Part shown: positions 1-63,830 of the stretch, one piece after another | How positions within the stretch are numbered: the stretch's first letter is position 1 | Layout: the number at the start of each line of letters is the position of its first letter | Source of the DNA: an uncultured Myxococcales bacterium | GTDB taxonomy: Bacteria; Myxococcota_A; UBA9042 | Length of the DNA stretch: 64,000 nt | NCBI GenBank assembly: GCA_903840165.1 | Contig: CAIMEY010000002.1 | Location: 133,109 to 197,108, forward strand | Reading direction: 5' to 3' | Translations under genes and position numbers: made by a program | The notes under the pieces: generated by a model | Databases searched by the model: none | What the model saw: only the letters and a program-made list of their open reading frames with translations | Told to the model about the DNA's origin: nothing

Positions 1-1243
1 GGCTCGGTCCGCCGACGCACAGGCCGTTCTTGCAGCCGTCCGCGACCGTGCAGGCGTTGTTGTCGCTGCAGGGCACGTTGTCAGCACCGGCCGGGAACAC
101 GCAGTTGCCGCTGTTGGGGTCGCAGGCATTGCTGGTGCAGGGGTTGTTATCATCGCAAGGGGTTGGCTTTCCAACGCAAATTCCAGCCGCGCAGGCATCA
201 ATGGTGCAGGCATTGCCATCGCTGCAGGGCCCACCCTCGAAGACGACTTGGCTGCAGGTGCCATTCTGGCAAGTATCTATGGTGCAAGGGTTATTGTCGT
301 TGCATTGGGCGTTTTGCTTGCACGGTGCCACGCAGTTGGCGATCGGCGCAAAGACGCACAAGCCCGTCTTGGGATCGCATTGGTCTTGCGTGCAGGCGTT
401 GCCGTCGTCGCAGGGCACGGCCGTGCCTGTGCAAGCCCCTGTTTTGCACGCATCTCCGGCCGTGCAGGCCAGGCCATCGCTGCAGGTGCTGCCGTCGGCG
501 ACTGCAGCATGGGCGCATTGACCAGTGGTGGCGTCACAACTGTCGATTGTACAAGGATTTTGGTCGTCGCAGACAGCCGGTGCGCCACCTTCACAGGCAC
601 CGCTGTTGCAGACATCGCCCAGCGTGCACAAGTTGTTGTCGCTGCAGGGATGTGCGGCGTTGACCGACACGCATTTGCCAGTCACCGCGTCGCATTTGTC
701 GTCGGTGCATGGGTTGTTGTCGTCGCAGGCCAGTTGGCTGGCGCCGCCGCAAACTCCATTGGCGCCGCAGACGTCGCCGGTCGTGCAGACGCTGCCATCA
801 TCGCAGGGGGCTCCTGCTGTGGCTACGTTGCTGCAAACCATGGCGGGGAAACTGCAATTGTCGGCTGTGCACGGATTCTTGTCGTCGCAATCGGCAGCCG
901 TTTGGCAAGCCGTCGGTGCCACGACATCCGGGCCCACGTCCACGCTGGGGAGGTCGGCTCCAGGGACATCGCCGGGGCTGGTGTCGGCATCAACTGCTGC
1001 AATATCAAGGGGTGGTGTCCCCGTGTCGCCACCGTCAGTCAGCGCAACATCGCCCCCGGTCTGACCGTCGACGCCGTCGCCGAGGACGCCATCAAGGTTG
1101 CCGTCGGCATCCGAGGACACGCCGGTGGTCGCCGGACCGGTGACAGGCGCGTCATTGGTGCAGCCAACTCCGCTCAGAATCAAGAGAAATCCAAGACAAC
1201 TATGGAGGGTCCAGCTTGTAGTCGTCTGCGTGGTGCGGGTCAT
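1..1243 (-). CDS. Cys-rich repeat (myxo-type disulfide repeat) lipoprotein, N-terminal part (gene runs off the left window edge)
   Basis: Minus-strand ATG at 1243 (plus-strand 'cat' 1241-1243). Hand translation gives MTRTTQTTTSWTLHSCLGFLLILSGVGC (signal peptide/lipobox-like), then a Asp/Gly-rich linker, then repeated C-x-D-x-N-x-C-T-x-D-x-C units (CDDKNPCTADNC, CDDNNPCTDDKCD, CDDQNPCTIDSCD...). The plus-strand ORFs 30..521 and 525..1064 are antisense artefacts of this gene. Not listed in the ORF track because it is open at the window edge. Confidence 0.7.
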   Translation of the reverse strand, partial: MTRTTQTTTSWTLHSCLGFLLILSGVGCTNDAPVTGPATTGVSSDADGNLDGVLGDGVDGQTGGDVALTDGGDTGTPPLDIAAVDADTSPGDVPGADLPSVDVGPDVVAPTACQTAADCDDKNPCTADNCSFPAMVCSNVATAGAPCDDGSVCTTGDVCGANGVCGGASQLACDDNNPCTDDKCDAVTGKCVSVNAAHPCSDNNLCTLGDVCNSGACEGGAPAVCDDQNPCTIDSCDATTGQCAHAAVADGSTCSDGLACTAGDACKTGACTGTAVPCDDGNACTQDQCDPKTGLCVFAPIANCVAPCKQNAQCNDNNPCTIDTCQNGTCSQVVFEGGPCSDGNACTIDACAAGICVGKPTPCDDNNPCTSNACDPNSGNCVFPAGADNVPCSDNNACTVADGCKNGLCVGGPS

Positions 1244-1542
1244 GGAGACTCCTTTGTGGCCCTGTTTTCCTTCGTGTAGGCCGAACACCCTGAGATTACA
1301 GGCGTCTTTTCCTGGTTGGCCCAGATTGACCGTTCGATGGCAGCGGCGAAGTATGGTGCAACCTGCTCGTCACCGCCAGACCAACCGTGCTAGTAGCCTA
1401 GACACTCCCGGCATGTGTTGCCACACGGCGCAAGCAAAGAATTGTAAAAAGAGGTCTGAGTTCGGAGCCCGATAGGCAACCGCGTTGCTCTTTGCTACCG
1501 TGTGCGCGCGGCGCCCCGCCTGGGCGAATTGCAGGAAGATTG

Positions 1543-2810: not shown

Positions 2811-2853
2811 CATCCGTCCGCTTGAGTTGAGTCTCCGTCTCGCCGAGGTTCTC

Positions 2854-5800
2854 ATGAATCCTATCGAAATGTCCTGTAAAATCAATGCCTATCGCATCTC
2901 CTTTCGCTTCGCCCAGGCGGGATTCTGGACGTCGCTTGCGGCCTTGGCGCTGCTGCTAGCTGGCTGCGGCAGCGACACGCCGGTCGCGGGAATTAGCGTT
3001 ATGGGCGATGCAACGGTCGACGCGGGACAAATTGACGGACTGACGACGGATTCTGACGTCTCGACTCCGGCAGACAGCACGGCTGTTGGCGGTGACGCCG
3101 TTGCTGTCGATGCAGTGGACACTCAAGATCTTGGAATTACGGATCAAATCGACATTGTCGCGCCTGATGCAGACGCAGTTGCCGATGACGCAGCGGACAT
3201 CCAGGTGCCCGATAACGGCGACTTGGACCAGGTTCCCCCTGACGGCTCGGATCAGGACGTCCCTCTGCTTGACGCCCAAGATGCTACGGTTACAGAGGAT
3301 TCCGACACGGGCGTTGAAGATTCTGCCACGGACTCGGGTTCCGCTGAACTGCCCATCGATCAAGACGTGCCGCCGCCGGCTTGCGTCACGGATACCGATT
3401 GCCCTGTCGCTGTAGGACTTTGCACCGGATCGGCCTGCGTTGCTGGCCAGTGCGTCGCCAAGGCTGCGGCCGATGGCACCGCCTGCGTGACTGCCGACGC
3501 GTGCACGGTCGGTGCCGTCTGCATCACAGGGCAATGCCTAGGGAATCTCAAGGTCTGCGACGACGGCAAGGTCTGCACGGACGATAGCTGCGACCCCGTC
3601 TCGGGGGCGTGCACCTTTGTGCCCAAGGCGGGCTGCACGGGCTGTAGTACCAACGCCGAATGCGATGACAAAAACGCTTGTACCGACGATAGTTGCAATG
3701 TCGCCTCCGGGGTTTGCAGCACTTCGGCCAAGGTGGACGGAGCCACTTGCGACGACGGCAACTTGTGCACGACGACCGACGCCTGCCAAAAGGGCGCGTG
3801 CATTGGTCAAGCAGTTGTTTGTAATGATAAAAACGCTTGCACCATCGACAACTGCGATGCCACGACCGGCAAGTGCCTCGCTACGAGCGAGCCCGATGCA
3901 ACCCCCTGCGACGACGGCAACGCTTGTACTACGGCCGATGCCTGCGCGGCTGGGAAATGCCTAGGAACAACAATAGTTTGTAATGACCAGATTTCTTGCA
4001 CCGCGGACAGCTGCGACGCCTTGACCGGCAAGTGTGTGTTTGCGGCGATCGCTGGTTGCGTGCCGGCCTGCCAAAGCAATGCCGACTGCAATGACCAAAA
4101 TGCTTGCACAACAGATAGTTGCACCGCCGGCAAGTGTGTTAGTGTCAATGCGGACGGTGCCGCCTGCGATGATGCCAACGCCTGCACCACCGGCGACGTC
4201 TGCACGGGTGGCAGTTGCGCCGGTGCCGCGATGGTTTGCGATGACGGAAATCCTTGTACAACAGATAGTTGCAAGAATGGTGCCTGTGGCTTTACCCAAC
4301 AGATCGGCCCCTGCGACGATGGCGACGCTTGCACCAACAATGACGTGTGCAAGGGGATCAAGTGCGTCGGCACGGCTCTGACCTGCAACGACAATAATCC
4401 TTGCACAACCGATGCTTGCGTGGCCGGTCAATGCAGCAGTTCGCCGATCAATGGCCCCTGCGACGACGGCGACGCCTGCACGTCTGCGGACTCGTGCCAG
4501 AACGGCAAATGCGTTGGCCTCGCCAAGGTTTGCGACGACGGCAACCCTTGCACCGCAGATGCCTGCCAAAATGGCGGCTGCGTCTTTGTCAACGCGGACG
4601 GAAAAGCCTGTGATGATGCCAATGTCTGTACTGCCGGCGACACCTGCACCGGCGGCCTATGCGTGGGCGGCGCTGCCACGGTCTGTGATGACAAAAACGT
4701 TTGCACGACGGATAGTTGCAACTCCAAGAAGGGTTGTGTCTTCATCAATGCCGATGGCACGCCTTGCGACGACGCCAATCCTTGCACCTCGCCCGATGCT
4801 TGCTCGGCTGCCAAGTGCGGCGGAACGTTGATTTCCTGCAGCGACAATGATCCTTGCACGGCCGATAGTTGCGACCCAGCGACCGGCAAATGCAGCTCCA
4901 AGCCGATTCTGGGCTGTGGCGACAACTGCGCGGCGAACAGCGACTGCAATGACAATAATGCTTGCACAACCGATACTTGTGTCGCGGGCAAGTGCTCGAT
5001 CGTCAACGCCGAGGGCTTGGCCTGCACCGACGGCAACGCGTGCACGCAAAATGACCTGTGCACGGGCGGCAAGTGCGTCGGCGGCACAGCTGTCAGCTGT
5101 GACGATGGAAACCCTTGCACCGTAGATACTTGCAACGCAGCGACCGGCAAATGCAGCAGCGTCAACGCCAGCGACGGCACGGTCTGCACCGACAATAACG
5201 TCTGCACCACCAGCGACCAATGCCTCGGCGGCAAATGCGCCGCCACACCCATTTTGTGCAACGATAACAACGTCTGTACCAGCGATGTCTGCGACCCTGT
5301 CAGCGGCAAGTGCGGCTACACGCCCGTGCAGGACGGCACGGCCTGTTCGGATGGCAACGCCTGCAGCCAAAATGACGCTTGTTCCAAGGGCACTTGCACC
5401 GGCCTAGCGGTCAACTGCGACGACGGCGACCCTTGCACCACGGACGCGTGCAACCCGCAGTCGGGCGCCTGCAGCCACACGGCCATTCCCAACTGCATCG
5501 CGCCCTGCAACAACAACAACCAGTGCAATGACAGTAATCCTTGCACAACCGATAATTGCGCTGCCGGCACCTGCGCCCACGCCGCCAACAATGCCGGTGC
5601 TTGCACGGACAATAACCTTTGCACAACCGATGGTTGCAGCGCGGGAAGCTGCGTGTCCGTCGCCATCGTCTGCGATGATAAGAATCCGTGCACGGTGGAC
5701 AAGTGCGACGTCGCCTCGGGGCAGTGCGTCAGCGCCGCTGGCCCGGACAACAGCGCCTGCGACGACGGAAACCCCTGTACTACGCCCGACTTATGCAAGG

Positions 5801-8619
5801 CGGGCAAGTGCACCGGGGCCGGCGCAGTTCTGTGCAACGATGGCGACCCCTGCACCACCGACGCCTGCGACGCGGCCACCGGCAAGTGCACGGCTTCGCC
5901 CATTCCCGGCTGCGGCGGAAACTGTGCAACGGTCCAAGATTGCAACGATAACAACGCCTGCACCAGCGATGCCTGCACCGCCGGCAAGTGCGTCAACACC
6001 GAGTTGACGGCAACGCCCTGCGACGACGGCAACGCCTGCACCAGCGGCGACGTTTGCACCACCGGCAAGTGCGCCGGACCAACGCCGAAGGTCTGCAACG
6101 ACAATAACACTTGCACAACAGATAGTTGCGACAAGGTCACCGGCAACTGCGTCTACACCAACGTTGCCGACGCAACCGCTTGCAATGACGGCCTTTTGTG
6201 CACAATTGGTGATGCCTGCACCGCGGGCAAGTGCGGTGGAACGGCAACCCCTTGTAATGACAACAATGCTTGCACGCTGGACGTGTGCAACCCCAACACG
6301 GGCATTTGCCAGTTTACGGCGATCCAGAACTGCGGCACGCCTTGCCTGACCGTTCAGCAGTGCAACGACAATAATGCTTGCACAACAGATGCTTGCACCA
6401 ACTTCCAGTGCGTTCACAAGCCCGCAGCCAATGGCGGTGCCTGCAGCGACAACAACCTCTGCACCACTGCCGACGCCTGCAACGCCGGTGTTTGCCAAGG
6501 CATAGCAACCACTTGCAACGACAACAATGTTTGCACCAATGACACCTGCCAAGCCGGCACGGGCAACTGCGTCTATGCCGCCGGAACCAATGGCAATCCG
6601 TGCAATGACAACAATCCCTGCACGTTGACGGACGCTTGCCAGGCGGGCACCTGCGTCGGCTCGGGCCTACTGCCTTGCAACGACAACAATGGTTGCACCC
6701 TGGATAATTGTGATGCCAAAAGCGGACTTTGCGTCTACGCGCCCATCAACGGCTGTGGTGGCAACTGCCTTGCGGCCAGCGACTGCGATGACAAGAATGC
6801 CTGCACGACCGACGCCTGCACGGCAGGCAAGTGCACCAACACCGCGCAAACAGGCACAAATTGTAGCGACGGCAATGCCTGCACCGTGGCTGACACCTGC
6901 CAAGCGGGCAACTGCATTGCTGGAAAGGCGGTCGCGTGCACGGACAACAACGTCTGTACCACGGACGCCTGCGATACCAATACGGGTTTGTGCGTCTACA
7001 CGGCCTTGGCTGCGGGCGCTCCGTGCACTGACGGCGTCGCCTGCACCAACGGCGACAACTGCACCGGCGGCAAATGCGTAGGCACCAATGTAGTTTGCAA
7101 CGACAATGACGCATGCACCACCGACGCGTGCGCAGCGGCGACGGGGCTCTGCGTCTACACGCCGATTGCTGGCTGCGGTGGCAATTGCATCCTGAATTTG
7201 CAGTGCAATGACCAAAACCCCTGCACCGGCGACGCTTGCACGGGCGGCAAATGCACCCACACCTTCCCGGCGGGCGGCAATTGCAATGACGGCAACGCTT
7301 GCACCACTGGCGACACTTGTGCCGGTGGCGTGTGCGCAGGTACACCCAAGGCGTGCAATGACAATAACCCTTGCACAACGGATGCTTGCAATGCAAACAA
7401 CGGCAACTGTGTCCACGCCGCTGCCGCTAACGGCACGGGCTGCGACGACGGCAACGCTTGCACAGGCGCTGACGCTTGCGCGGCTGGCACCTGCACGGGC
7501 GTGGCTACCAACCAGTGCAATGACAATAACGTTTGCACGACGGATGCTTGCAACACACTGACCGGTGTGTGCACCAACACCGCCATCGCCGGTTGCGGCA
7601 TCAAGTGCGTCCTCAACGCCGATTGCAATGATGGCAACAGCTGCACGACCGACGTCTGCACCGCCGGATCCTGCGTGATTACCAAGCTCAACGCCACGGC
7701 CTGCGAGGACGGCAACCTCTGCACCACCCTGGACACCTGCGTCACCGGCGTATGCACCTCGGGCAAGGCCGTGAATTGCAATGACAACAACGTTTGCACC
7801 ACGGAGGCTTGCGACGCCAAGACCGGCCTGTGCGCCGGCCAGAACGTCGCCAACGCAACGCCGTGCAATGACGGCACCAACTGCACCACCGGCGACGTCT
7901 GCACGACCGGCAAATGCGCTGGCAAAGCAGTGGTTTGCAACGACGGCAACCCGTGCACCCTGGACAGCTGCGGCGGCAACAACGGCAATTGCCAGTTCCA
8001 GGCCATCGCCAACTGCAACGCCAACTGCGCCAGCGATGCGCAGTGCGCCGACAACAACATCTGCACCACCAACACCTGCACTGCCGGCAAGTGCGCAGTG
8101 ACCTATGCCGACGGAACTCCTTGCACAGACAACAACTTGTGCACGGTTGGCGATATTTGCGCCATCGGTCGCTGCGTCGGCACCGCCACCAACTGTGACG
8201 ACGGCGTGGTCTGCACCACCGACACTTGCGTCGCGGCCAGTGGCGTTTGCAGCCACACAACCCAGCAAAATTGCGGACCTGCGTGCACACAGAATGCAAC
8301 GTGCAATGACAACAACGTCTGCACCGTCGACGCCTGCAACACCTACACCGGCAACTGCGTCAACCAGGCGATTCCCAACTGCAATCCGGTGCCCCAGTGC
8401 ACGCTCAACACCGACTGCAATGACAACAACGTCTGCACCCTGGACACCTGCAACGCCAGCAACGGACAGTGCGTGTTCACCAACATCCCGGGCTGTAATC
8501 CCAATGCCCAGTGCAAGTTGGACGCGGACTGTAACGACAACAACGTCTGCACGGTCGACTACTGCGACACCTTCAACAGCACCTGCCAGCACATCGTCTT
8601 GCAGGGCTGCGTGCCGTAG
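2854..8619 (+). CDS. Giant Cys-rich repeat lipoprotein (~45 tandem myxo-type C-x-D-x-N-x-C-T-x-D-x-C repeats)
   Basis: ORF 2827..8619 (1930 aa). GAGG sits 5 nt upstream of the ATG at 2854. N-terminus MNPIEMSCKINAYRISFRFAQAGFWTSLAALALLLAGCGS has a basic n-region, a hydrophobic core and an LLAGC lipobox. A D/T/V-rich acidic linker follows, then ~40-aa Cys repeats along the whole length (e.g. CDDGNPCTTDACD, CNDNNVCTTDAC). Antisense ORFs (e.g. 6667..8592) are artefacts. Confidence 0.9.
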   Translation: MNPIEMSCKINAYRISFRFAQAGFWTSLAALALLLAGCGSDTPVAGISVMGDATVDAGQIDGLTTDSDVSTPADSTAVGGDAVAVDAVDTQDLGITDQIDIVAPDADAVADDAADIQVPDNGDLDQVPPDGSDQDVPLLDAQDATVTEDSDTGVEDSATDSGSAELPIDQDVPPPACVTDTDCPVAVGLCTGSACVAGQCVAKAAADGTACVTADACTVGAVCITGQCLGNLKVCDDGKVCTDDSCDPVSGACTFVPKAGCTGCSTNAECDDKNACTDDSCNVASGVCSTSAKVDGATCDDGNLCTTTDACQKGACIGQAVVCNDKNACTIDNCDATTGKCLATSEPDATPCDDGNACTTADACAAGKCLGTTIVCNDQISCTADSCDALTGKCVFAAIAGCVPACQSNADCNDQNACTTDSCTAGKCVSVNADGAACDDANACTTGDVCTGGSCAGAAMVCDDGNPCTTDSCKNGACGFTQQIGPCDDGDACTNNDVCKGIKCVGTALTCNDNNPCTTDACVAGQCSSSPINGPCDDGDACTSADSCQNGKCVGLAKVCDDGNPCTADACQNGGCVFVNADGKACDDANVCTAGDTCTGGLCVGGAATVCDDKNVCTTDSCNSKKGCVFINADGTPCDDANPCTSPDACSAAKCGGTLISCSDNDPCTADSCDPATGKCSSKPILGCGDNCAANSDCNDNNACTTDTCVAGKCSIVNAEGLACTDGNACTQNDLCTGGKCVGGTAVSCDDGNPCTVDTCNAATGKCSSVNASDGTVCTDNNVCTTSDQCLGGKCAATPILCNDNNVCTSDVCDPVSGKCGYTPVQDGTACSDGNACSQNDACSKGTCTGLAVNCDDGDPCTTDACNPQSGACSHTAIPNCIAPCNNNNQCNDSNPCTTDNCAAGTCAHAANNAGACTDNNLCTTDGCSAGSCVSVAIVCDDKNPCTVDKCDVASGQCVSAAGPDNSACDDGNPCTTPDLCKAGKCTGAGAVLCNDGDPCTTDACDAATGKCTASPIPGCGGNCATVQDCNDNNACTSDACTAGKCVNTELTATPCDDGNACTSGDVCTTGKCAGPTPKVCNDNNTCTTDSCDKVTGNCVYTNVADATACNDGLLCTIGDACTAGKCGGTATPCNDNNACTLDVCNPNTGICQFTAIQNCGTPCLTVQQCNDNNACTTDACTNFQCVHKPAANGGACSDNNLCTTADACNAGVCQGIATTCNDNNVCTNDTCQAGTGNCVYAAGTNGNPCNDNNPCTLTDACQAGTCVGSGLLPCNDNNGCTLDNCDAKSGLCVYAPINGCGGNCLAASDCDDKNACTTDACTAGKCTNTAQTGTNCSDGNACTVADTCQAGNCIAGKAVACTDNNVCTTDACDTNTGLCVYTALAAGAPCTDGVACTNGDNCTGGKCVGTNVVCNDNDACTTDACAAATGLCVYTPIAGCGGNCILNLQCNDQNPCTGDACTGGKCTHTFPAGGNCNDGNACTTGDTCAGGVCAGTPKACNDNNPCTTDACNANNGNCVHAAAANGTGCDDGNACTGADACAAGTCTGVATNQCNDNNVCTTDACNTLTGVCTNTAIAGCGIKCVLNADCNDGNSCTTDVCTAGSCVITKLNATACEDGNLCTTLDTCVTGVCTSGKAVNCNDNNVCTTEACDAKTGLCAGQNVANATPCNDGTNCTTGDVCTTGKCAGKAVVCNDGNPCTLDSCGGNNGNCQFQAIANCNANCASDAQCADNNICTTNTCTAGKCAVTYADGTPCTDNNLCTVGDICAIGRCVGTATNCDDGVVCTTDTCVAASGVCSHTTQQNCGPACTQNATCNDNNVCTVDACNTYTGNCVNQAIPNCNPVPQCTLNTDCNDNNVCTLDTCNASNGQCVFTNIPGCNPNAQCKLDADCNDNNVCTVDYCDTFNSTCQHIVLQGCVP

Positions 8620-10073: not shown

Positions 10074-10194
10074 CAAGGCACCGCTGCGCCGCAGACGTAC
10101 AACCGGCAAAGAGCTTGAAAGGCAAATGGTTTAATGACTGCGCCCAGTGCGTAGGCACTGGGAAGCACGCAACCGCTCGTCGCTTCACGACCCC

Positions 10195-10386
10195 CAAGTA
10201 CCTCAAACCCGAAGTTCCTTGCGGGTTCGAGGCACAGTGTTGGCTTCTAGTTTCAGCGGGGCCCGCGGCCCCCCTCGCCCGCCCGCGAGGGCTCACCCCT
10301 GCGTTCGGCCGGGTCCCCGGCTGCAAAGTCCACAACGCCGAGTCCGTTGCGGTAACCCGCAAAGGACTTAGGGTTACGTGTACTAG
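10195..10386 (-). repeat. Copy A of a MITE/REP-like repeat element (CTAGTAC-type terminal inverted repeats, internal hairpins), inverted relative to copy B at 37559-37805
   Basis: The reverse complement of 10195-10386 aligns along its length with 37559-37805. Shared blocks: ctagtacacgtaaccc..., ...ccgcaggggtgagccc..gggcgggcg..., ...tgaaactagaagc.aacactgt.cctc.aacccg..aggaacttcgggtt.gagg. Terminal hairpins include cctcaaacccg/cgggttcgagg. The right end GTGTACTAG contains the TAG stop of the SPOR gene. Confidence 0.55.
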
Positions 10387-12191
10387 TTCGCCGTTTGAAT
10401 CAACACGGTTTCGCCGCCCACAGCCGTTTCAAAGCCCTTCTGCGCCGCCTTGGCAGCGGCCTGATCGGCAAAGGGCCCGAGGCGCACGCGGTAAAAGGTG
10501 CCCTTCTCGGGAACTTCGCCAGCAAATACAGCGGATTTCATGCCCTTGGCAGTCAGCATTTCGGCAAAGGAATCGGCGTCTGCCTGGGTCCGAAAGGACT
10601 TCACCTGCACCATCCACTTGCCGCCGGCATTCTTGTTGCCTGAGGCCGCCCCCTTGGCCTCGCCTTTTCTCTGCGGCTGAACTGCCTTGGCTGCGGCTTG
10701 GCGCTCTGCTTCTGCCTTTTCCTGCGCCGCCTTGTCCCTGTCTGCCCGGTCCTGGTCGGCCTTGGACTTGGCCGCCTTCTCCGCTTGAGCGCGCGCCTGG
10801 GCTTGTTTGGCCGCCACCTGCTCCTGTGCTTGCGCTTGCGCCTTGGCCGCCTTTTCCTCAGAGGCCTTCTGCTCGGCCGCCTTCAGGTTAGACTGCCTCT
10901 CAGATTCCTTCTTTCCTTTCAAAGCTTTGGCTGCTGCCACCTTGTCACGCTCGGCCTGGGCCTTGGCCGTCTTCTCGGCCGCAGCCTTTTCGGTCGCGGC
11001 CTTCTCTGCAGCTCGCTTGTCCGCTTCTTTCTTTTCTTTCGCAGCCTTTGCCGCAGCCACCTTGTCGCGCACAGCCTTGGCCTTGGCAGCCTTTTGCGCC
11101 AGCGCCTCTTGCTTAGCAGCCTTCTCCGCGGCAATTCGCTCGGCTTCTTCCTTTTCTTTCGTGGCCTTGGCTGCTGCCACCCTTTCCTTGGCCGCCTTTG
11201 CCTTGGCCGCCTTGTCAGCCAATGCCTTCTCCTTGGCGGCCTTCTGCGCTGCTAGGCGTACGGCGTCCGCTTGGGCCTCGGCCGCTCTTTCGGCTTCTGC
11301 CCTTTCTTTCGCGGCCTTGGCTGCTGCCGCCTTCTCGGCCGCGGCCTTTTCCTTGGCGGCCTTTTCTGTTGCAGCTTTGACGGCTTGCTGCCGTTCTCGG
11401 GCTTCCTTCTCCGCTTTAGCCCGTTGTTCTTCGGCCTTGCGTTCGGCTTCGGCCCGGGCGGCCGCGGCTTCCCGTTCAGCCTTGGCACGCAGTTCCGCTG
11501 CCTCACGTTCAGCTTTTACACGTAATTCTAAAGCCTTACGGTCCGCTTCGGCCTTGGCTTCTGCCGCACGTTTGGCCGCTGCAGCGTTCTCGAGCGCAGC
11601 CGCCTCCTGGGCTTTTGCAAGTTCAATCGCCGCCTTGCGCTTCGCCTCGGCCTCTGCCTTTGCCGCAGCTTCTTCCCGGGCTTTGCGTTCGGCAGCTGCT
11701 TTTTCCGCAGCGAGCCGTTCTGCCTGGGCCTTCCTTGCGGCGAGTTCCTTCTCTTCTGCAGCCTTTTCAGCAGCTTGAGCCGCGGCCGCACGACGGTCCG
11801 TCTCAGCCTTTTCAGCGGCGGCACGTTGGGCGGCGAGGGCTTGTTCGGGCACATCGGCGTGGGCACTTGCCGGCAGCATTTTAGCTACATGATCAGCAGG
11901 TTGCGGGAGTGGCTCTGGAGGCGGATTGAGCGGGGCCGGAATGATCGGGGCCTCCGCCTTTGCTCTAGGTGCCGCGGCAGGGGGAAGGGCAACCTCAGGC
12001 GTCGCCTCAGCTTTTGGCGGTGTCTGGCTGCCTTGCGCCACGGGTGGCGGCTCTTGACGGCCTAGGTGGTAGCCCACAGCGAACGTCACCGCCAGCGCCA
12101 CAGCACCGACGATGCCAAAGCGCAAAATGTCCCGCACTTCCAGGTGCAAAATCAAGCGTTCGCGCACGCGGTCAAAGTCGCGCAGGGCCAT
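10383..12191 (-). CDS. SPOR-domain protein (FtsN/DamX/TolA-like): N-terminal TM anchor, long Ala/Lys/Glu-rich repetitive helical region, C-terminal SPOR peptidoglycan-binding domain
   Basis: 602-aa ORF. MALRDFDRVRERLILHLEVRDILRFGIVGAVALAVTFAVGYHLG (TM segment). ~400 aa of degenerate AEKAAKEKA repeats. C-terminal WMVQVKSFRTQADADSFAEMLTAKGMKSAVFAGEVPEKGTFYRVRLGPFADQAAAKAAQ is a SPOR-domain signature. Confidence 0.85.
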   Translation of the reverse strand: MALRDFDRVRERLILHLEVRDILRFGIVGAVALAVTFAVGYHLGRQEPPPVAQGSQTPPKAEATPEVALPPAAAPRAKAEAPIIPAPLNPPPEPLPQPADHVAKMLPASAHADVPEQALAAQRAAAEKAETDRRAAAAQAAEKAAEEKELAARKAQAERLAAEKAAAERKAREEAAAKAEAEAKRKAAIELAKAQEAAALENAAAAKRAAEAKAEADRKALELRVKAEREAAELRAKAEREAAAARAEAERKAEEQRAKAEKEARERQQAVKAATEKAAKEKAAAEKAAAAKAAKERAEAERAAEAQADAVRLAAQKAAKEKALADKAAKAKAAKERVAAAKATKEKEEAERIAAEKAAKQEALAQKAAKAKAVRDKVAAAKAAKEKKEADKRAAEKAATEKAAAEKTAKAQAERDKVAAAKALKGKKESERQSNLKAAEQKASEEKAAKAQAQAQEQVAAKQAQARAQAEKAAKSKADQDRADRDKAAQEKAEAERQAAAKAVQPQRKGEAKGAASGNKNAGGKWMVQVKSFRTQADADSFAEMLTAKGMKSAVFAGEVPEKGTFYRVRLGPFADQAAAKAAQKGFETAVGGETVLIQTAN

Positions 12192-19929: not shown

Positions 19930-22900
19930 CTACTTGCAGGCGCAGGCCGTGTCGAGCTTGTAGTCGCCCGCGTAGCCATCATAGCCATCGACAACGAACA
20001 AGTACTTGGAATCCTTGACCGCATTGAAGGTCACGGCCACGGTGCTGTTCATCATCAGGCCGCCGGCGAGGCAGGTCTTGCCGTCGCAGATCTTGCTGCC
20101 GTCGAGCACGAACAGGTCGAGGTAGCCCGGCGTCGTGCTGACCTTGGTCAAGGTCACAGTGATCGCACCAGTGCACGAAGCCGTGAAATCATACGTGTAT
20201 TCGTTGCCCGTCTCGGTGCCGTAGGTGTTGGCGGGGCAGACGTACGTGTCCACCTTGTCGGTGCTGCCCGTGCTGTCGCTGGTGTACTGGTCGCTGCTGC
20301 CACAGCTCATCGGGAAGTCGCCGACGCAGCCGGCCGCGCACGACGCATCGGCGGCGCAATCGCTGTCCGCACAGTCGGTTGTGCCGTCTTTGTCGTTGTC
20401 GATGCCGTCGTTGCAGATGGCTTCAGTGGCCGGAATCGGCGTGCAGCCGCAGTCGATCTTGATGTCATACTGACCGCTGTAGTTGTTGTAACCGTCGACA
20501 ACGATGTCGTATTTGGCACCCTTCTTGCCAGCGAACTTGACCGTCGCCGTTTTGCCGCCCATCAGGCCATGGGCAACGCAGCTGGAACCCGCGCACACTT
20601 GGCTGCCGTCAAGGACAAACAAGTCGAGGAATCCTGCGGCCGTAGACGTCTTGGTCAAGGTCACGGTCACGTCGCCGTCGCACTCGCCCAAGTAGGTGTA
20701 GGTGTATTCGCTGCCGGTTTCGTTGCCGAAGCTACCGTCTTTGCAGGTGTAGCTGTCAACGATGTCCGTGCTGCCGGCGCTGGCGTTGCCATAGGAATCC
20801 GTGCCGCCGCAGGTGAGCGGGAAGTCGCCACTGCACTGGCACACGGGGTTGGCCGCGCAATCGCTGTCGGCGCAATCGGTTTTGCCGTCTTTGTCGTTGT
20901 CGACCTTGTCATCGCAAATCGATTCCTTGCTGATGACGCAGGCGGGGTCCTTGGCGCAATCGCTGTCCGAGCAGTCGGTCTTGCCGTCCTGGTCATTGTC
21001 GATTTGGTCGGCGCACTTGGTCTCCGTGGTGACCTTGCAGGCGGCATCGGCAGCGCAATCGCTGTCATCACAGTCGGTTTTGCCGTCGCCATCGTTGTCG
21101 ATCTTGTCGGCGCAGAGGGTTTCCTTGCCGGCGCAAACCGCCTTGATCGTGTAATCGGACTTGACGGCATTGTAGCCATCGACCGCGAACAAGTACTTGT
21201 CGCCCTTCTTGACGCTGACGGTCTTGGTGGCCGCGTTGTTGCTCATCAGCGCGTGCGCGACGCAGGTATTGGCTGCGCAAGGTTTGGTGCCGTCGAGCAA
21301 GAACAAGTCAATGAACTCACTGGCGCTGCCCGTCTTGGTCAGCGTCACGGTCAAATCGCCTGTGCAATCAGCGGTGTAGGAGTAGGTCAGTTCCGGCCCT
21401 GTCTCATTGCCAGCGCTGCCGTCGGTGCAGGTCCAGGTGTTGACGACCTGGGTGCTGCCATTGCCGCCGTTGTTCCAGTTGTCGGCAACGCCAGACTTAA
21501 GCGTATACGAGGCCTTGCAGGAGCAGGCGGCATCAGCGGCGCAATCGCTGTCGGCGCAGTCGATCTTGCCGTCCTTGTCGTTGTCGATCTTGTCGCTGCA
21601 GAGCGTTTCCGTGCTGGTCGGCGCGCAGGCCGGATCCTTGGCGCAATCGCTGTCATTGCAGTCGGTTTTGCCGTCCTTGTCGTTGTCGATCTTGTCGGTG
21701 CAGTTGGCTTCGGTGCTCGGCGCGACGCAGGCGGGATCCTTGGCGCAATCGCTGTCGCCGCAGTCGGTTTTGCCATCCTTGTCGTTGTCGACCTTGTCGG
21801 TACAGTTGGTCTCAACGGTGGGTGTGCAAGCCAGATCGGCAGCGCAATCGCTGTCTTTGCAGTCGGTCAGGCCATCGGCATCGTTGTCGATCGTGTCGTT
21901 GCAGATGGTTTCCTTGCCGCCCGCGCAGCCGCACTGGATCTTGAGGGTGAAATCGGTGGCGAGATTGGCGTAACCGTCGACAACTACAAGGTACTTGGTG
22001 CCCTTCTTGGCGTCCTTGAGCGTCACGGTCGCCGCGTCGGTGCCCATCAAGTTGTGGGCAATGCAGGTGTTGGCCGCGCACGCCTTGCTACCATCGAGGA
22101 CGAAGAGGTCCAAGTAGCCAGATGCAGTGCCAATCTTCTGTAGCGAAATGGTCATCGCGCCATCGCATTCCGCGGTGACGTCGTACACCATTTCGGGGCC
22201 AGTTTCCTGATTGGCATTACCATCTTTGCAGGTGTAGCTGTCCAGGGCCTTGCTGCTGCCGGCGTCGCCGTTGTTGCCCTTGACCGAATCGCCGCAGATG
22301 TGGCTGCCGGCGCTCTGGCAGGTGGCCACAGGCACGTTGCAAGCGGCGGCCTTGGTACAATCGTCGTCGGCGCAGTCGGTATTGCCGTCGCCGTCATCGT
22401 CTTTCTTATTGGCGCAGTCCGCTTCGCACTGCTTGCCGCAGGCCGCGAACACTTCCTTGACGCAAACAGCGTCCCAGGCGGTGTCGCAGCAGTAGCCGTC
22501 GCCGCTCCAGTTCCCAGAAGCGTCTTTGGTTCCGCAGACTTTGGCAGCGCACGGGTCGCAGGCGGGGTCCAGTGGCTTGCCACCAGCGGCAGCGGCGCAG
22601 ACGTTGCAGGTCGCCTTGCACGCGGCATCAGCGGCGCAATCGGCGTCGTTGCAGTCGACTAAGCCATCGAGGTCATTGTCGATCTTGTCGGTGCAGTTGG
22701 TCTCGGTCTTGGGGGCCAAGCACTTGGCATCCTTGGCGCAGTCGCTGTCGTTGCAGTCGGTCTTGCCGTCTTTGTCGTCGTCGACCAAGTTGCCGCAGTT
22801 TGTCTCGACCGTCACGGCGCACGCGGCGTTGACCGCACAATCGTTGTCGGCGCAATCGGTTAGGCCGTCTTTGTCGTCGTCGATGCCATTGGTGCAGTTG

Positions 22901-23949
22901 ACTTCGCCGTTGGCGTTGCAGGCTGCATCCGCGGCGCAATCGTTGTCTTTGCAGTCGGTTGCGCCGTCCTTGTCGTCGTCAATGCCATTGGTGCAGTTGG
23001 CTTCCTTGGTCGGATTGGCGCAGGCCGCGTCGGCAGCGCAATCGTTGTCGGCGCAGTCCGTGGCGCCGTCCTTGTCGTCGTCAACGCCATTGGCGCAGTT
23101 GGTTTCCTTGGCGGGGATAGCTGCACACGCTGGGAAGGTCGCGCAATCACTGTCTTTGCAGTCGGTCTGACCGTCGCCGTCGTCGTCGATGTTGTTGGCG
23201 CAATCCGTTTCCGTCTTGCCAATCGCACACTTGGGGTCGGTGGCGCAGTCGTTGTCGGCGCAGTCGATGGCACCGTCGCAGTCGTCATCCTTGCCATCTG
23301 AGCAGTTGATTTCTTTGGTGTTTGCGCAGGTGCCGCTGCCGCCCTTGCAAACGCCGGCGACGCACAAGTCGCCCGTGGTCGTCGGGTCGCCGTCATCGCA
23401 GGGCTTGCCGTTGTTGGTGTACTGGCAACCGTTGGTAGAATCACAGGTTTCGTCGGTGCACGGGTTGTTGTCGTCGCAGTTGGCCTTGACGGTGCCGTTG
23501 CAGGTGCCGGCCGTGCAGACCGCTTGGCTGTAGCACATGTCGGCCGACTGGCAGTTGGTGCCGTCCGGGGCCGTGGCTGTTTGGCAAGTACCTGAACTTA
23601 CGTCACATTGGGCGACTTGGCAGGAGCCGACGTTGACCTTGCCGGTGCAATCGGCGTCGGTTTTGCAGCCGCCGCTCTGACTGCCTTGATCATCGGGGGT
23701 TTGCACGTCGTTGGTGCCGGTGTCGACCTTGGTCGTGTCGCCCGCCTTGGTGTCGCCTAGGTTCACGACGACGTCTTGTCCGCCGTTATTGTTGGCATTA
23801 TTGGTGGACGACTGCGTTCCGTTGCCGTCACTGCAGGCAGCTGCGAGCACAAGGCCAGCCGCAAGCAGGACGCGGGTACAGGCATTCAGGGCCGTGGAAG
23901 CGGGACGATGCATGGTAAGCTCCGAGAATGATTCTGAAAAAACCGGCAA
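19930..23949 (-). CDS. Giant multidomain lipoprotein: MopE-like/thrombospondin-type-3-like Asp/Cys calcium-binding repeats alternating with four pre-peptidase C-terminal (PPC)-like domains
   Basis: 1339 aa. Start at 23949 (MPVFSESFSELT) or 23913 (MHRPASTALNACTRVLLAAGLVLAAACSDG with LAAAC lipobox). More than 20 units of C-x-N/D-x-IDNDKDGKTDC-x-DSDCA-x-D-x-AC. Four ~120-aa modules with ...YTCKDGS.GNETG.E.TY... DLFVLDGS..C....C.AH.LM.... KY.FVVDGY......Y.I (PPC-domain-like). Confidence 0.85.
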   Translation of the reverse strand: MPVFSESFSELTMHRPASTALNACTRVLLAAGLVLAAACSDGNGTQSSTNNANNNGGQDVVVNLGDTKAGDTTKVDTGTNDVQTPDDQGSQSGGCKTDADCTGKVNVGSCQVAQCDVSSGTCQTATAPDGTNCQSADMCYSQAVCTAGTCNGTVKANCDDNNPCTDETCDSTNGCQYTNNGKPCDDGDPTTTGDLCVAGVCKGGSGTCANTKEINCSDGKDDDCDGAIDCADNDCATDPKCAIGKTETDCANNIDDDGDGQTDCKDSDCATFPACAAIPAKETNCANGVDDDKDGATDCADNDCAADAACANPTKEANCTNGIDDDKDGATDCKDNDCAADAACNANGEVNCTNGIDDDKDGLTDCADNDCAVNAACAVTVETNCGNLVDDDKDGKTDCNDSDCAKDAKCLAPKTETNCTDKIDNDLDGLVDCNDADCAADAACKATCNVCAAAAGGKPLDPACDPCAAKVCGTKDASGNWSGDGYCCDTAWDAVCVKEVFAACGKQCEADCANKKDDDGDGNTDCADDDCTKAAACNVPVATCQSAGSHICGDSVKGNNGDAGSSKALDSYTCKDGNANQETGPEMVYDVTAECDGAMTISLQKIGTASGYLDLFVLDGSKACAANTCIAHNLMGTDAATVTLKDAKKGTKYLVVVDGYANLATDFTLKIQCGCAGGKETICNDTIDNDADGLTDCKDSDCAADLACTPTVETNCTDKVDNDKDGKTDCGDSDCAKDPACVAPSTEANCTDKIDNDKDGKTDCNDSDCAKDPACAPTSTETLCSDKIDNDKDGKIDCADSDCAADAACSCKASYTLKSGVADNWNNGGNGSTQVVNTWTCTDGSAGNETGPELTYSYTADCTGDLTVTLTKTGSASEFIDLFLLDGTKPCAANTCVAHALMSNNAATKTVSVKKGDKYLFAVDGYNAVKSDYTIKAVCAGKETLCADKIDNDGDGKTDCDDSDCAADAACKVTTETKCADQIDNDQDGKTDCSDSDCAKDPACVISKESICDDKVDNDKDGKTDCADSDCAANPVCQCSGDFPLTCGGTDSYGNASAGSTDIVDSYTCKDGSFGNETGSEYTYTYLGECDGDVTVTLTKTSTAAGFLDLFVLDGSQVCAGSSCVAHGLMGGKTATVKFAGKKGAKYDIVVDGYNNYSGQYDIKIDCGCTPIPATEAICNDGIDNDKDGTTDCADSDCAADASCAAGCVGDFPMSCGSSDQYTSDSTGSTDKVDTYVCPANTYGTETGNEYTYDFTASCTGAITVTLTKVSTTPGYLDLFVLDGSKICDGKTCLAGGLMMNSTVAVTFNAVKDSKYLFVVDGYDGYAGDYKLDTACACK

Positions 23950-36920: not shown

Positions 36921-37562
36921 ATGTATCAGGTTGGCGATGAAACCGAAGGCTTTTGCCCGCGCTGCCGCCTCAACACCTACCAAGTCATTGCCGCCACCGA
37001 TGGTGAAACAATCCAGTCGGTTGCGTGCCGCACCTGTCGCAATACCTTCGCGCATCGGCGGGAGGTCACAGAACAAGAAGTTCGCCAAAACAACCTGAAG
37101 AAGCTGGCAAAAATGCAAAAGTCGAGAATGCCGTCCCCCGCCCCAGAAGTGCTGACCCGCGGACGACGAAAAGTGAGTGATTTTGACCGCCAACTGCAAG
37201 CACTGGCTCAGCTCAATGGCCGAGATCCAGTCGAACAAGTGCAGGAATTGTCTGCAGATGCCCGGGCACGCAGCGCGGTGTCCCAAGCCGCCTCAGGCAC
37301 AGCCGCGACCGTCGAGCCCGCAACCAGTGGCGCTGCATTGGAGAATCAGGCCCCCGGCGAGCGCTGGAAGGCATTGACGGCTCCTCTAGGCTGGCGCGAT
37401 GGCAAGCCCTACAGCGCGCAAAAAACCTATAAAGAGGGCGATGTTGTGCTGCACAAAGCCCTGGGAATGGGCATTGTCGAGCAGGTCGTTCACGATCACG
37501 CCTGCCTAGTACTGTTTCGCGATTCGCAGACGGTGCTGGAAATGGCAACTCCGCTGAGCTAG
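36921..37562 (+). CDS. Hypothetical protein with N-terminal Cys4 zinc-ribbon (CPRC...CRTC)
   Basis: ORF 36897..37562. MYQVGDETEGFCPRCRLNTYQVIAATDGETIQSVACRTCRNTF, then a low-complexity linker and a C-terminal ~60-aa conserved-looking domain. Its TAG stop lies within the CTAG terminus of repeat copy B. Confidence 0.5.
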   Translation: MYQVGDETEGFCPRCRLNTYQVIAATDGETIQSVACRTCRNTFAHRREVTEQEVRQNNLKKLAKMQKSRMPSPAPEVLTRGRRKVSDFDRQLQALAQLNGRDPVEQVQELSADARARSAVSQAASGTAATVEPATSGAALENQAPGERWKALTAPLGWRDGKPYSAQKTYKEGDVVLHKALGMGIVEQVVHDHACLVLFRDSQTVLEMATPLS

Positions 37563-37805
37563 TACACGTAACCCCAAGTGCTTTCCGGCAACCCGCAAGG
37601 CCCTTGGGGTTGTGGACTTTTAGCCGGGGCCGGCCGACCGCAGGGGTGAGCCCGCACGGGCGGGCGGGGGAGGACTCCGCGGTGCGCGCAGCGCATGAGC
37701 TGTGCCAAGTCTGGCACGGCGAAAGTGGAGATGGCGCGCCCCCTTGAAACTAGAAGCAAACACTGTTCCTCTAACCCGCCAGGAACTTCGGGTTAGAGGT
37801 ACTAG
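37559..37805 (+). repeat. Copy B of the MITE/REP-like repeat element (CTAGTAC ... GTACTAG termini; ~55-bp extra internal segment relative to copy A)
   Basis: Starts ctagtacacgtaaccccaag, ends cctctaacccgccaggaacttcgggttagaggtactag (11-bp perfect stem). A nested 9-bp stem aaccccaag/cttggggtt lies near the left end. A central G-rich block ggggtgagcccgcacgggcgggcggggg is shared with copy A. Confidence 0.55.
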
Positions 37806-37835
37806 CTTCGGAGAACTGTCTTAAAACACGCAATG

Positions 37836-38651
37836 TTAGGCGTGGACGATTGTGCGCAAACCCGCTGCACCGTCGATATAGGCAGCCACGGCGTCGTCGT
37901 CCTTGTATCCGACAATCGCCACTTGCTTGGCCCCGAGGCGCAGGATTTCAGCGACCTCTTCGAGCTTGGCCACCATGCCGCCGTGCACCGCACCTGAGCT
38001 GATCAACTGAGGAATTTCGTCAGCGCTCAGCTCGGCGATGTGGCTCGCCGGGTCAGCTAGCTCGCGGAATACGCCTGGCACGCCGGTGACGAGCACCACG
38101 TCGTCGATTTTCGCCGCCTTGACCAAGGCCGTTACCAGGGTATCCGCATTGAGATTGAGCAGTTGGCCACACGGATCGCAGACCAGGGACGATAGAACCG
38201 GCACATAATCGCCCTGCCACAACGTCTGCAGCAAGCGGCCATCGGCATGGACCACATCGGCAACTAGACCAAAATCAACGGGTTCAGCCTCGCCGGCCAC
38301 TTCGCGCGGGGGCCTTTTGCGTCCGACGACCAGCAGACCACTCGCCGCCGGGAACGCTACGGCAGGCAGTCCCGCGCCCAAACACGCCGCTAGCAGTGCC
38401 GGAGCCACTTCGCCGCCCATCGCCAAGGTCACGGCTTGCAGCATCGCCGCATCGGTCACCCGGCGTCCACCGCGAAAAACAGAGTCGATTCCAAGCCTTT
38501 TTCCCATCGCCGTGATCTGCGGGCCAGCGCCGTGAACGACGCAGAGGTGCACGCCGCGCTCATGCACGCCAGCGAGGTCCGCGGCCAAGCGATCCCGATC
38601 CTCTTGTTTCTGAAGCGTTTCTCCGCCCACTTTCACCAGTACTTTGCGCAT
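37836..38651 (-). CDS. argB: Acetylglutamate kinase
   Basis: 271 aa. KVGGE..., VVHGAGPQI, ...AVHGGMVAKL motifs typical of N-acetylglutamate kinase. Confidence 0.9.
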   Translation of the reverse strand: MRKVLVKVGGETLQKQEDRDRLAADLAGVHERGVHLCVVHGAGPQITAMGKRLGIDSVFRGGRRVTDAAMLQAVTLAMGGEVAPALLAACLGAGLPAVAFPAASGLLVVGRKRPPREVAGEAEPVDFGLVADVVHADGRLLQTLWQGDYVPVLSSLVCDPCGQLLNLNADTLVTALVKAAKIDDVVLVTGVPGVFRELADPASHIAELSADEIPQLISSGAVHGGMVAKLEEVAEILRLGAKQVAIVGYKDDDAVAAYIDGAAGLRTIVHA

Positions 38652-61152: not shown

Positions 61153-61528
61153 GGGCACCTTGATCGTGGACGGGCCCTCACGGTGGGCCAGTGGGTTCTG
61201 CCGCAGCGGCATCTTGCCCGATGCCCGCAGGACTGTTAGTTTGTCGCGCGTTGTCCACTGCCCGCGGCCGGTCTGCACCGGATCTGCAGCGGGGAGCGGC
61301 ACAATCCAATCGACCCCGCGCGGCTCATCGATTGGCGGCGCTGCCTCGGTCAACTGCAGGTAATGACAGCAGTATTACGCGAGATTTCGACGGCATGGGC
61401 CGCGCGTGTCGCTGGGCTGCGTCGTCGCTGCTAGGTGGTGCTCAGCATCATCCTTCGCGCTGCGTTGGAATCATAACCTCGCTTCACTTTGGGCTTTTGC
61501 CTGGGGTAGCGTTTCATGCCAGACCCAC

Positions 61529-61602
61529 GTCCCCGTAGCTCAGAAGGATAGAGCGTTCGCCTCCTAAGCGAAAGGCCACAGGTTCGATTCCTGTCGGGGA
61601 CG
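61529..61602 (+). tRNA. tRNA-Arg (anticodon CCT)
   Basis: GTCCCCGTAGCTCAGAAGGATAGAGCG-TTCGC-CTCCTAA-GCGAA-AGGCCACAGGTTCGATTCCTGTCGGGGACG. 7-bp acceptor stem GTCCCCG/CGGGGAC. Anticodon loop CT-CCT-AA. GTTCGATTC T-loop. CCA not encoded. Confidence 0.85.
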
Positions 61603-61688
61603 CCCGCATGACGGTCCGGCCCACGCCGAGTCCTGCCCCTATTACCCAGCGGCTTGACCGCAACTTCGTCCGCCAAAGGCACCAAAGT

Positions 61689-62966: not shown

Positions 62967-63006
62967 GGATGGCTGCGCGTGCTGGGCTTGCCTCGTCGAC
63001 CTGGGC

Positions 63007-63035
63007 TTGACACCTGCATCACTGCTGCCCATACT
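63007..63035 (+). promoter_or_regulatory. Sigma-70-like promoter (TTGACA-17 nt-CATACT) upstream of tRNA-Leu
   Basis: TTGACA at 63007-63012, 17-nt spacer, CATACT at 63030-63035. ~85 nt upstream of the tRNA 5' end. Confidence 0.35.
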
Positions 63036-63119
63036 GTCCGCCGCTTGCAGACACCTGCGCGGTGCGAGCGGGCAAGGCGAGGAGAGGCCCCTGTGCAGGC
63101 AAACTCCTTGAAAGTCCAT

Positions 63120-63203
<84 letters not shown>

Positions 63204-63281
63204 CCCCAACTGACCTGCTGCAAGCGCCACTGGTATCCAACCAAGTGGCGCTTTGCGTTTTTGCCGCAGACGGCGGGACTT

Positions 63282-63830
63282 ATGCGTCTGATAGACCTCT
63301 CGATGACGCCCGTGGCCACGACGATTTCGCATGGATTATCGTGGATTGGCATGGTGCTTCTCCTCCTGGCGGGGCCTCTGAGTTGCGCCAAGTCAGGGCC
63401 GGAACGACATCTCGAACAGGCGGAAGCGCAACTCAAGGATGCGCTTGACCTTTTACGCCAAGCGCATGGCAAGCAGCGGGCTTTGCTGGCGGCGACCCTT
63501 GCCTACCGCGCCGATCATGGGGCTCAGATCCAAGCGTTGCGCGTGCACGGCGGCGAAATTCTCAATCAACTCAATGGCGATGAGCGCATTCACTGGCAGA
63601 CCGAGTCGCAGAACCGCCTCTCGCCCGTGCTAGCGCAAATTGAACTGGCGAGTCAGCAATTCCTGATTCCGGAGCAGGCTTTGGCTGTGGTGATGCCCCT
63701 GCTGGTCCAAGCCACGCCCAAGGCGACCGGCCAAAGGCCTTGGCTGCCGCCGGTGCCGCCTTCGCCCTTTGAACAATCAGGACCTGCGCCAGGCCTGCCA
63801 GGGGCTCATTCGCCTGGGAGTGCGCCATGA
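63282..63830 (+). CDS. Hypothetical secreted/membrane-anchored protein
   Basis: ORF 62979..63830 overlaps the tRNA. Internal start MRLIDLSMTPVATTISHGLSWIGMVLLLLAGPLSC (signal/anchor) at 63282 is more plausible. Its stop overlaps the lnt ATG (ATGA). Confidence 0.45.
   Translation: MRLIDLSMTPVATTISHGLSWIGMVLLLLAGPLSCAKSGPERHLEQAEAQLKDALDLLRQAHGKQRALLAATLAYRADHGAQIQALRVHGGEILNQLNGDERIHWQTESQNRLSPVLAQIELASQQFLIPEQALAVVMPLLVQATPKATGQRPWLPPVPPSPFEQSGPAPGLPGAHSPGSAP

Follow-up and report, generated by a model that had tools for sequence, protein, structure and literature searches.

The 64,000-nt window, by which we mean the whole stretch of DNA analysed here, harbours two copies of a short noncoding repeat, whose ends form imperfect inverted repeats of ~33 nt and which is probably a lineage-specific, MITE-like non-autonomous element. 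The MITE-like signature consists of the short noncoding unit, the inverted ends, the CTAG flanks, a length variant in the centre, and the presence of dispersed copies with unrelated flanks. A reading made from the letters of the window had already proposed a MITE, and the inverted ends, the CTAG flanks of copy B, the small noncoding unit, the dispersed copies and the central indel all favour that proposal. The mobility of the element is an inference from these features. Most likely the element is an ordinary kind of bacterial feature, situated in a harmless intergenic gap.

Bounds, inverted ends and length variants of the repeat

A repeat search of the window paired copies A and B in three inverted collinear blocks, namely 10197-10266 with 37734-37803 (89%), 10269-10312 with 37630-37673 (89%), and 10325-10389 with 37556-37620 (80%). 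BLAST E-values of the three blocks within the window range from 2.7e-17 to 8e-5, which is far beyond chance. Pairwise alignment of the two copies gave 160 matches and 27 mismatches over 187 aligned positions, corresponding to 85.6% identity. The repeat pair described in the sequence-only reading is thus real, and the coordinates proposed there for copy B are identical to the refined bounds (Table 1). The likeness between the copies begins at the CTAG at 37559 and stops at the CTAG that ends at 37805, being abrupt at both ends. The copies lie 27 kb apart, and the sequences flanking them are unrelated. Of the 274 nt that separate the zinc-ribbon gene from argB, copy B takes up the greater part.

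Table 1. Coordinates of the repeat copies, their parts and the neighbouring genes in the window
Feature	Position	Strand	Description
Copy B, whole element	37559-37805	+	247 nt; nhmmer full profile E=1.8e-83
Copy A, whole element	10195-10386	-	192 nt; orientation opposite to copy B
Left flanking CTAG	37559-37562	+	possible target duplication, or else the outer end of the inverted repeat; the zinc-ribbon ORF stops at its TAG
Left terminal inverted repeat, ~33 nt	37559-37591	+	22/33 matches to the reverse complement of 37773-37805
Right terminal inverted repeat, with flanking CTAG 37802-37805	37773-37805	+	end profiles and shuffle test
Left extended hairpin	37567-37614	+	outer stem CGUAACCCCAAG/CUUGGGGUUGUG, inner hairpin 37580-37601; -26.8 kcal/mol predicted
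9-bp stem AACCCCAAG/CTTGGGGTT	37570-37578 / 37603-37611	+	part of the left outer stem
Central GC-rich block, common to copy A	37622-37675	+	BLAST 37 nt, 92%, E=3.9e-9; profile search
B-only segment TCCGCGGTGCGCGCAGCGCATGAGCTGTGCCAAGTCTGGCACGGCGAAAGTGGAGATG	37676-37733	+	58 alignment columns without counterpart in copy A; net +55 nt
Least GC-rich conserved block TGAAACTAGAAGCNAACACTGT	37745-37766	+	kept between copies
Right hairpin CCTCTAACCCG-(10 nt)-CGGGTTAGAGG	37768-37799	+	about -18 to -23 kcal/mol, z=-4.2
Zinc-ribbon-like gene, co-oriented upstream	36921-37562	+	213/221 aa, two CxxC pairs; no Pfam family above threshold
argB, convergent	37836-38651	-	amino-acid kinase family PF00696, E=3e-35; argC-like gene adjoins
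SPOR-domain gene by copy A	10383-12191	-	PF05036, E=1e-16
453/468-aa gene, convergent, other side of copy A	ends 10073	+	

In both copies the terminal inverted repeats are located at the exact ends of the repeat unit. Copy B begins with CTAGTACACGTAACCCCAAGT..., and the reverse complement of its right end reads CTAGTACCTCTAACCCGAAGT..., with agreement at 22 of the 33 positions; the inverted ends of copy A agree at 25 of 33. None of 20,000 shuffles equalled the inverted-end match of copy A or of copy B. A profile of the left ends picks up the right ends in inverted orientation (E=0.039), and the converse search works too. The motif CTAGTACACGTAACCC is present exactly at both left ends and, at 3 mismatches, at the right end of copy B, where the chance expectation is 0.13.

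CTAG borders copy B at either end; in copy A it is present at the left end, with CTTG at the right. The layout of copy B corresponds exactly to C-TA-[GTAC...GTAC]-TA-G; in copy A the left TA has TT as its counterpart at the right end. The flanking CTAG is palindromic and continuous with GTAC, and could belong to the inverted repeat instead of being a target duplication. Taken as target duplications, the flanks of copy B would fit an IS630-type duplication of TA and an IS5-type duplication of CTAG equally well.

Copy B had been credited with an insertion of ~55 bp. The net difference of 55 nt holds, but the 70-nt string quoted for it overruns into the GC-rich flanks shared with copy A, and the junction of the B-only segment is ambiguous by a few bases. 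Folded alone, this segment gives a closed two-hairpin Y module (-28.6 kcal/mol, MFE frequency 0.59), which occupies the position of the 3-nt loop of a 6-bp GC hairpin in copy A. BLAST detected no further copy of the segment in the window and ~40 kb of extra same-genome sequence. A nested copy of another repeat was rejected as its identity, given that the same-genome sequence obtained holds no second copy. From the alignment, the extra segment is best read as an indel between subfamilies. It is situated at the apex of the central stem, where MITE subfamilies usually differ in length. Copies A and B would then be two length variants, of which B retained or acquired a self-folding module of 55-58 nt at that apex.

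Two assembly breaks were observed next to the copies. A Logan contig from run ERR4194714 breaks at 37737, where the B-only segment gives way to the shared right module, and a scaffold from another sample breaks at 10165, 30 nt outside copy A. These breaks may be induced by repeats or variants, or may merely reflect coverage.

Predicted folds, gene ends and stop codons

Every terminal repeat contains its own hairpin in both copies. In copy A, the left hairpin reads GTAACCC-12 nt-GGGTTAC and its right counterpart CCTCGAACCCG-10 nt-CGGGTTTGAGG, with the two units in mutually inverted orientation. The sequence-only reading had assigned nested hairpins to copy B, and the predicted fold bears them out, with an inner hairpin within the 9-bp stem AACCCCAAG/CTTGGGGTT. 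This stem surrounds 24 nt, which themselves fold as the inner hairpin, and not a loop of 15 nt as quoted earlier. It had also been described as additional in copy B. The stem is real but not new to B, as seven of its nine pairs are also found in copy A in a two-sequence consensus fold; judged from the two sequences, it appears to be ancestral and better preserved in copy B. One inner pair of the left hairpin shows a compensatory G-C to C-G change in copy A. In the right hairpin, one U-A to G-U change is found in copy A, so that the pairing is preserved only in RNA of the element strand.

The whole-element fold was compared with shuffles. Copy B has z=-3.7 on the element strand and z=-3.3 on the opposite strand, and copy A has z=-3.65. 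The fold energies of the element strand and the opposite strand are -128 and -117 kcal/mol, respectively; good folding on both strands is what is expected of a DNA palindrome. For both copies, a pairing is predicted between an internal ACTAG (37748-37752), which belongs to the conserved block TGAAACTAGAAGC, and CTAGT at the left end (37559-37563); this pairing would enclose the left two-thirds of the element as one domain.

The stop codon TAG of the zinc-ribbon ORF (37560-37562) corresponds to bases 2-4 of the element and lies inside the first CTAG, and the stop of argB (37836-37838, minus strand) lies 30 nt from the element end. The placement of copy B between these genes, overlapping the zinc-ribbon stop and 30 nt from argB, had been described before and is confirmed. 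Similar to copy B, copy A begins at the stop TAG of the SPOR gene (10385-10383), in the same arrangement of stop and element, and both copies occupy gaps between convergent housekeeping genes. In the upstream reading frame, the conserved left terminus of both copies has a second stop soon after the first, TAG TAC ACG TAA (37560-37571, and 10385-10374 on the minus strand). The same TAG TAC ACG TAA in the upstream frame is also present on the metagenome contig OEIV010009457.1.

The zinc-ribbon-like family is small, with ~30 database clusters and no Pfam model, and is always found as the divergent neighbour of dnaB. Eleven out of the seventeen aligned homologues end in ...LER at the C-terminus, and a twelfth ends in ...VDR. 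The zinc-ribbon protein of the window is 4 residues shorter and ends in ...PLS exactly at the element start.

Among 38 stop codons of a rough ORF set in the window, 23 are TAG, 12 are TGA and 3 are TAA. In database gene calls of same-genome loci, TAG accounts for 8 of 14 and 5 of 6 stops. The loci of two relatives are also TAG-rich (6/17 and 7/15). In a bacterium with 61% GC, TGA is normally the dominant stop, and the TAG-dominated stops found here are unusual for such a genome. The window contains 27 noncoding CTAG sites, three of them inside element bodies, and seven of the other 24 consist of C plus a TAG stop codon. Since TAG is the commonest stop in the genome, many tolerated CTAG sites are C plus a TAG stop, which under the MITE reading would account for the overlap with stop codons at both copies. 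By our own estimate, the occurrence of the same element end on a co-oriented stop in both copies has p of roughly 0.04-0.09 when a tolerated CTAG site and the orientation are drawn at random. This coincidence of stop and orientation is mildly notable and hints at something beyond neutral insertion.

The sequence-only reading had suggested that copy B might define the 3' ends of both the zinc-ribbon and the argB transcripts. A consensus scan for intrinsic terminators, defined as a GC-rich hairpin followed by a U tract, was empty for both strands of 37559-37805. After the left hairpin there is only GACUUUUAG. On the minus strand, as read from argB, the right hairpin precedes the loosely U-rich AACAGUGUUUGCUUCUAGUUUC, which corresponds to the conserved internal block. 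An intrinsic terminator was rejected as the identity of the element, as the consensus scan was empty and the hairpins are followed by no canonical U tract. A weak terminator or an exonuclease block at the right hairpin, read from the argB side, is conceivable from the predicted structure. On these predictions, a role of the element as the 3' end of both transcripts is neither supported nor refuted. Read-through transcripts from the flanking genes would contain very stable hairpins, and stabilisation or ending of the transcript is possible as a by-product.

Relatives, further copies and other identities

The search with BLAST and nhmmer detected no third copy in ~104 kb of the same genome, including ~40 kb beyond the window from three contigs, which were reached through proteins encoded at the window edges and through a paralogue on a separate contig. 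This same-genome set left out four looked-up loci of other organisms, three with 66% GC and one with 70% GC. Proteins identical to argB and the zinc-ribbon protein of the window were found only in a series of ENA/NCBI metagenome assemblies; one of these is ERZ1426836, in which a 280-kb contig contains the locus, and the longest contig encoding the zinc-ribbon protein measures 525 kb. In the same-species contigs, copy B is unchanged and the spacing is identical at both loci. The closest zinc-ribbon homologues are 54% identical; at their loci the pairing of dnaB with the zinc-ribbon gene is kept and the downstream gene is different. No trace of the element was found at the zinc-ribbon loci of relatives, in which the downstream spacers are 42-95 nt long.

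Exact-pattern scans for an internal 22-mer of the element gave 0 matches in the genome collection and 0 in the metagenome collection, and two exact-pattern scans of the viral collection gave 0 matches. BLAST revealed no match to the element among plasmids. The 3'-end motif has two matches in the genome collection, one inside a Butyrivibrio gene, which we judge to be chance, and the other at the start of a Solirubrobacteraceae contig. In the latter, the right-end motif GGAACTTCGGGTTAGAGGTAC is present at positions 4-24 of the stored locus of the Solirubrobacteraceae MAG contig CAWFKF010000051.1. The start of this locus probably coincides with the start of the 33-kb contig, and contig ends often lie within repeats. 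A single match of GGAACTTCGGGTTAGAGGTAC at a contig start is at about chance level.

The 5'-end motif has one match in the metagenomes, on contig OEIV010009457.1. Locus positions 721-760 of this contig contain CTAGTACACGTAACCCGAAGTCC, which matches the left end of copy A at 22 of 23 positions and whose first bases coincide with the TAG stop that ends a co-oriented ORF of 233 aa (23-724). The likeness to the left end is gone after ~25-38 nt, the structure is unremarkable (z=-1.5), and a profile search of the locus found no inverted partner of the left end. By our estimate, a single match of 20 bases is roughly at chance level for the size of the collection, and the coincidence with a stop codon makes it a lead, not evidence. 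The match may represent a distant relative of the left terminus, or chance.

At gathering thresholds, a scan of the whole window with Rfam 15 detected only two tRNAs. A permissive Rfam scan of 37400-37950 gave a best score of 19.5 bits against a threshold of 65.9 bits, on the wrong strand. A known RNA family was rejected, as both Rfam scans lacked a credible match. A protein-coding element was rejected as well, as the ORFs are inconsistent in frame between the copies; a search of 5.8 billion proteins with the 74-aa translated frame of copy A returned no homologue. No transposase gene was identified in the window or in the same-genome extensions that were fetched.

Possible origins of the element and other features of the window

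Under the MITE reading, a DDE transposase encoded elsewhere in the genome would recognise the inverted repeats and insert the element at CTAG. Insertion would duplicate the central TA, as in the IS630/Tc1 type, or the entire CTAG, as in the IS5 type. Insertions within genes would be lost, and the survivors would remain in promoter-free gaps between convergent genes. Such an insertion history predicts the empty sites GAGCTAGCTT for copy B, at the zinc-ribbon/argB locus, and GAACTAGGGG for copy A, at the SPOR locus. Counted against a MITE are the presence of only two copies in ~104 kb, the lack of a transposase gene in the window and of any insertion sequence known to us with matching ends, the possible membership of the flanking CTAGs in the inverted repeat, the coincidence of stop and orientation, and the U-A to G-U change, which pairs only in RNA of the element strand.

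Several described systems resemble the element. It shares with MITEs of the IS630/Tc1-mariner group, such as RUP of Streptococcus pneumoniae and Correia/NEMIS (TA target), a length of ~100-250 bp, the noncoding nature, inverted ends, strong hairpins and a location at gene ends. Correia elements are known to affect transcripts. The flanks found here are compatible with duplication of TA within CTAG, in the form C-TA-[GTAC...GTAC]-TA-G. In contrast to those MITEs, the present element has an apparently low copy number and a hairpin in each inverted repeat; no sequence similarity to described elements and no IS630-type transposase were found. A preference of IS630 for TA within 5'-CTAG-3' is reported by Tenzen & Ohtsubo 1991, a reference listed in PMC2170065. 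MITEPsy1 inserts at CTAG/YTAA with a 4-nt duplication (PMC3189936). The CTAG/CTAG flanks of copy B fit the target rule of this MITE, a derivative of the IS5-family ISPsy2 in Pseudomonas syringae. However, MITEPsy1 is 100 nt long with unrelated ends (GGAAGGTCTGAAAAAGCC), whereas the element described here is 192-247 nt long, with ~33-nt repeats that start with (C)TAGTACACGTAACCC.

The element shares with ERIC/IRU sequences a size of 100-250 bp, an imperfectly palindromic structure, a place in transcribed intergenic regions and the existence of length variants. The ERIC/IRU length variants reportedly arise via internal insertions and deletions at fixed positions. ERIC/IRU sequences differ in that they are unrelated in sequence and belong to a different host lineage, and in that the ends described here fit a CTAG target. 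REP, BIME and REPIN sequences associated with RAYT also possess inverted hairpin units at gene 3' ends, with possible stabilisation of the upstream mRNA. Unlike them, the element lacks the GTAG head and has a low density; its spacer is much longer, and its termini are true inverted repeats flanked by CTAG.

The stop codons and folds also bear on a different explanation, in which the element is a functional 3'-UTR RNA module. Such a module, which may still be mobile, would supply a stop codon (TAG, with an in-frame TAA two codons on) and, through its hairpins, would terminate or stabilise the transcript and keep the convergent gene insulated. We consider this explanation unlikely and retain it mainly on account of the coincidence of stop and orientation: both copies, as well as the candidate left end on OEIV010009457.1, begin at a co-oriented TAG stop. 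With n=2, that coincidence reaches just p=0.04-0.09 given the TAG-rich stops. The fold of the element strand beats shuffles (z=-3.7 and -3.65) and is slightly better than that of the opposite strand (-128 vs -117 kcal/mol), but the opposite strand folds nearly as well, as it would in a DNA palindrome. The two pair changes in copy A, the compensatory G-C to C-G and the U-A to G-U, count in favour of such a module, as does the most conserved internal block, which becomes a U-rich stretch after the right hairpin when read from argB; against this, the terminator scan called no canonical site, Rfam gave no match, and the 42-95-nt spacers of relatives suffice without the element. A bolder version is more doubtful still. 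It supposes a mobile "3'-end cassette", an orientation-specific module that joins TAG stops, adds the back-up stop TAG-TAC-ACG-TAA and a structured RNA tail, sets the transcript 3' ends or stability of both convergent genes in a lineage whose stops are unusually rich in TAG, and has a left terminus common to distant bacteria, the last point being a hint from the OEIV010009457.1 match.

The hairpins in each terminal repeat, the mutual inversion of the units, and the intergenic site at gene 3' ends would also suit a REP/REPIN-like doublet, moved on single-stranded hairpins by a RAYT (an IS200/IS605-like Y1 transposase) without target duplication. REPs are said to carry a conserved GT(A/G)G head; the head found here is TAGTACACG. 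The units lie ~125-180 nt apart, far longer than in REPINs, the density is low (2 in ~104 kb), no RAYT gene was seen in the window, and the inverted repeat extends right to the ends of the element, where the CTAG flanks are of the sort usual for DDE elements. This origin is accordingly very improbable. The least probable of the explanations considered is a non-mobile duplicate, that is, a single intergenic sequence copied once by recombination or gene conversion and belonging to no family. Only two copies were found, and the public collections scanned yielded no relatives apart from one left-end match of 21-23 nt. However, the boundaries are sharp at identical termini with unrelated flanks on both sides, inverted ends and CTAG flanks are unexpected from a segmental duplication, and the copies are 14% diverged, in opposite orientation and 27 kb apart.

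If the MITE reading is right, the element would represent an undescribed small transposon family in a poorly sampled uncultured lineage, and the oversized 274-nt spacer between two core genes would be explained. The repeat is also of a kind able to break assemblies. If the stop-anchored, co-oriented placement held across many copies, the element would be a natural mobile supplier of gene 3' ends, providing a stop and a structured tail.

The window also encodes giant cysteine-rich repeat proteins, at 1-1300 (minus strand), 2827-8619 (plus strand) and 19930-23949 (minus strand), and most repeat families of the window stem from these proteins. In database gene calls, PF00526 (Dicty_CTDC) is assigned to homologues of the 2827-8619 ORF, and the gene at 20-24 kb has a repeat period of 99-102 nt. 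On the 280-kb contig of ERZ1426836, database gene calls break the giant repeat genes up into many short ORFs, whereas in other assemblies and in the window they are single ORFs of 1374-2930 aa, which suggests frameshift errors or collapse of the repeats in that assembly. A tRNA-Leu(CAG) gene at 63119-63206 overlaps a long spurious ORF (62979-63830). A tRNA-Arg(CCT) gene at 61528-61605 is located directly upstream of a DEAD-box helicase gene, for which the database-called start is 61689 and not 61608.
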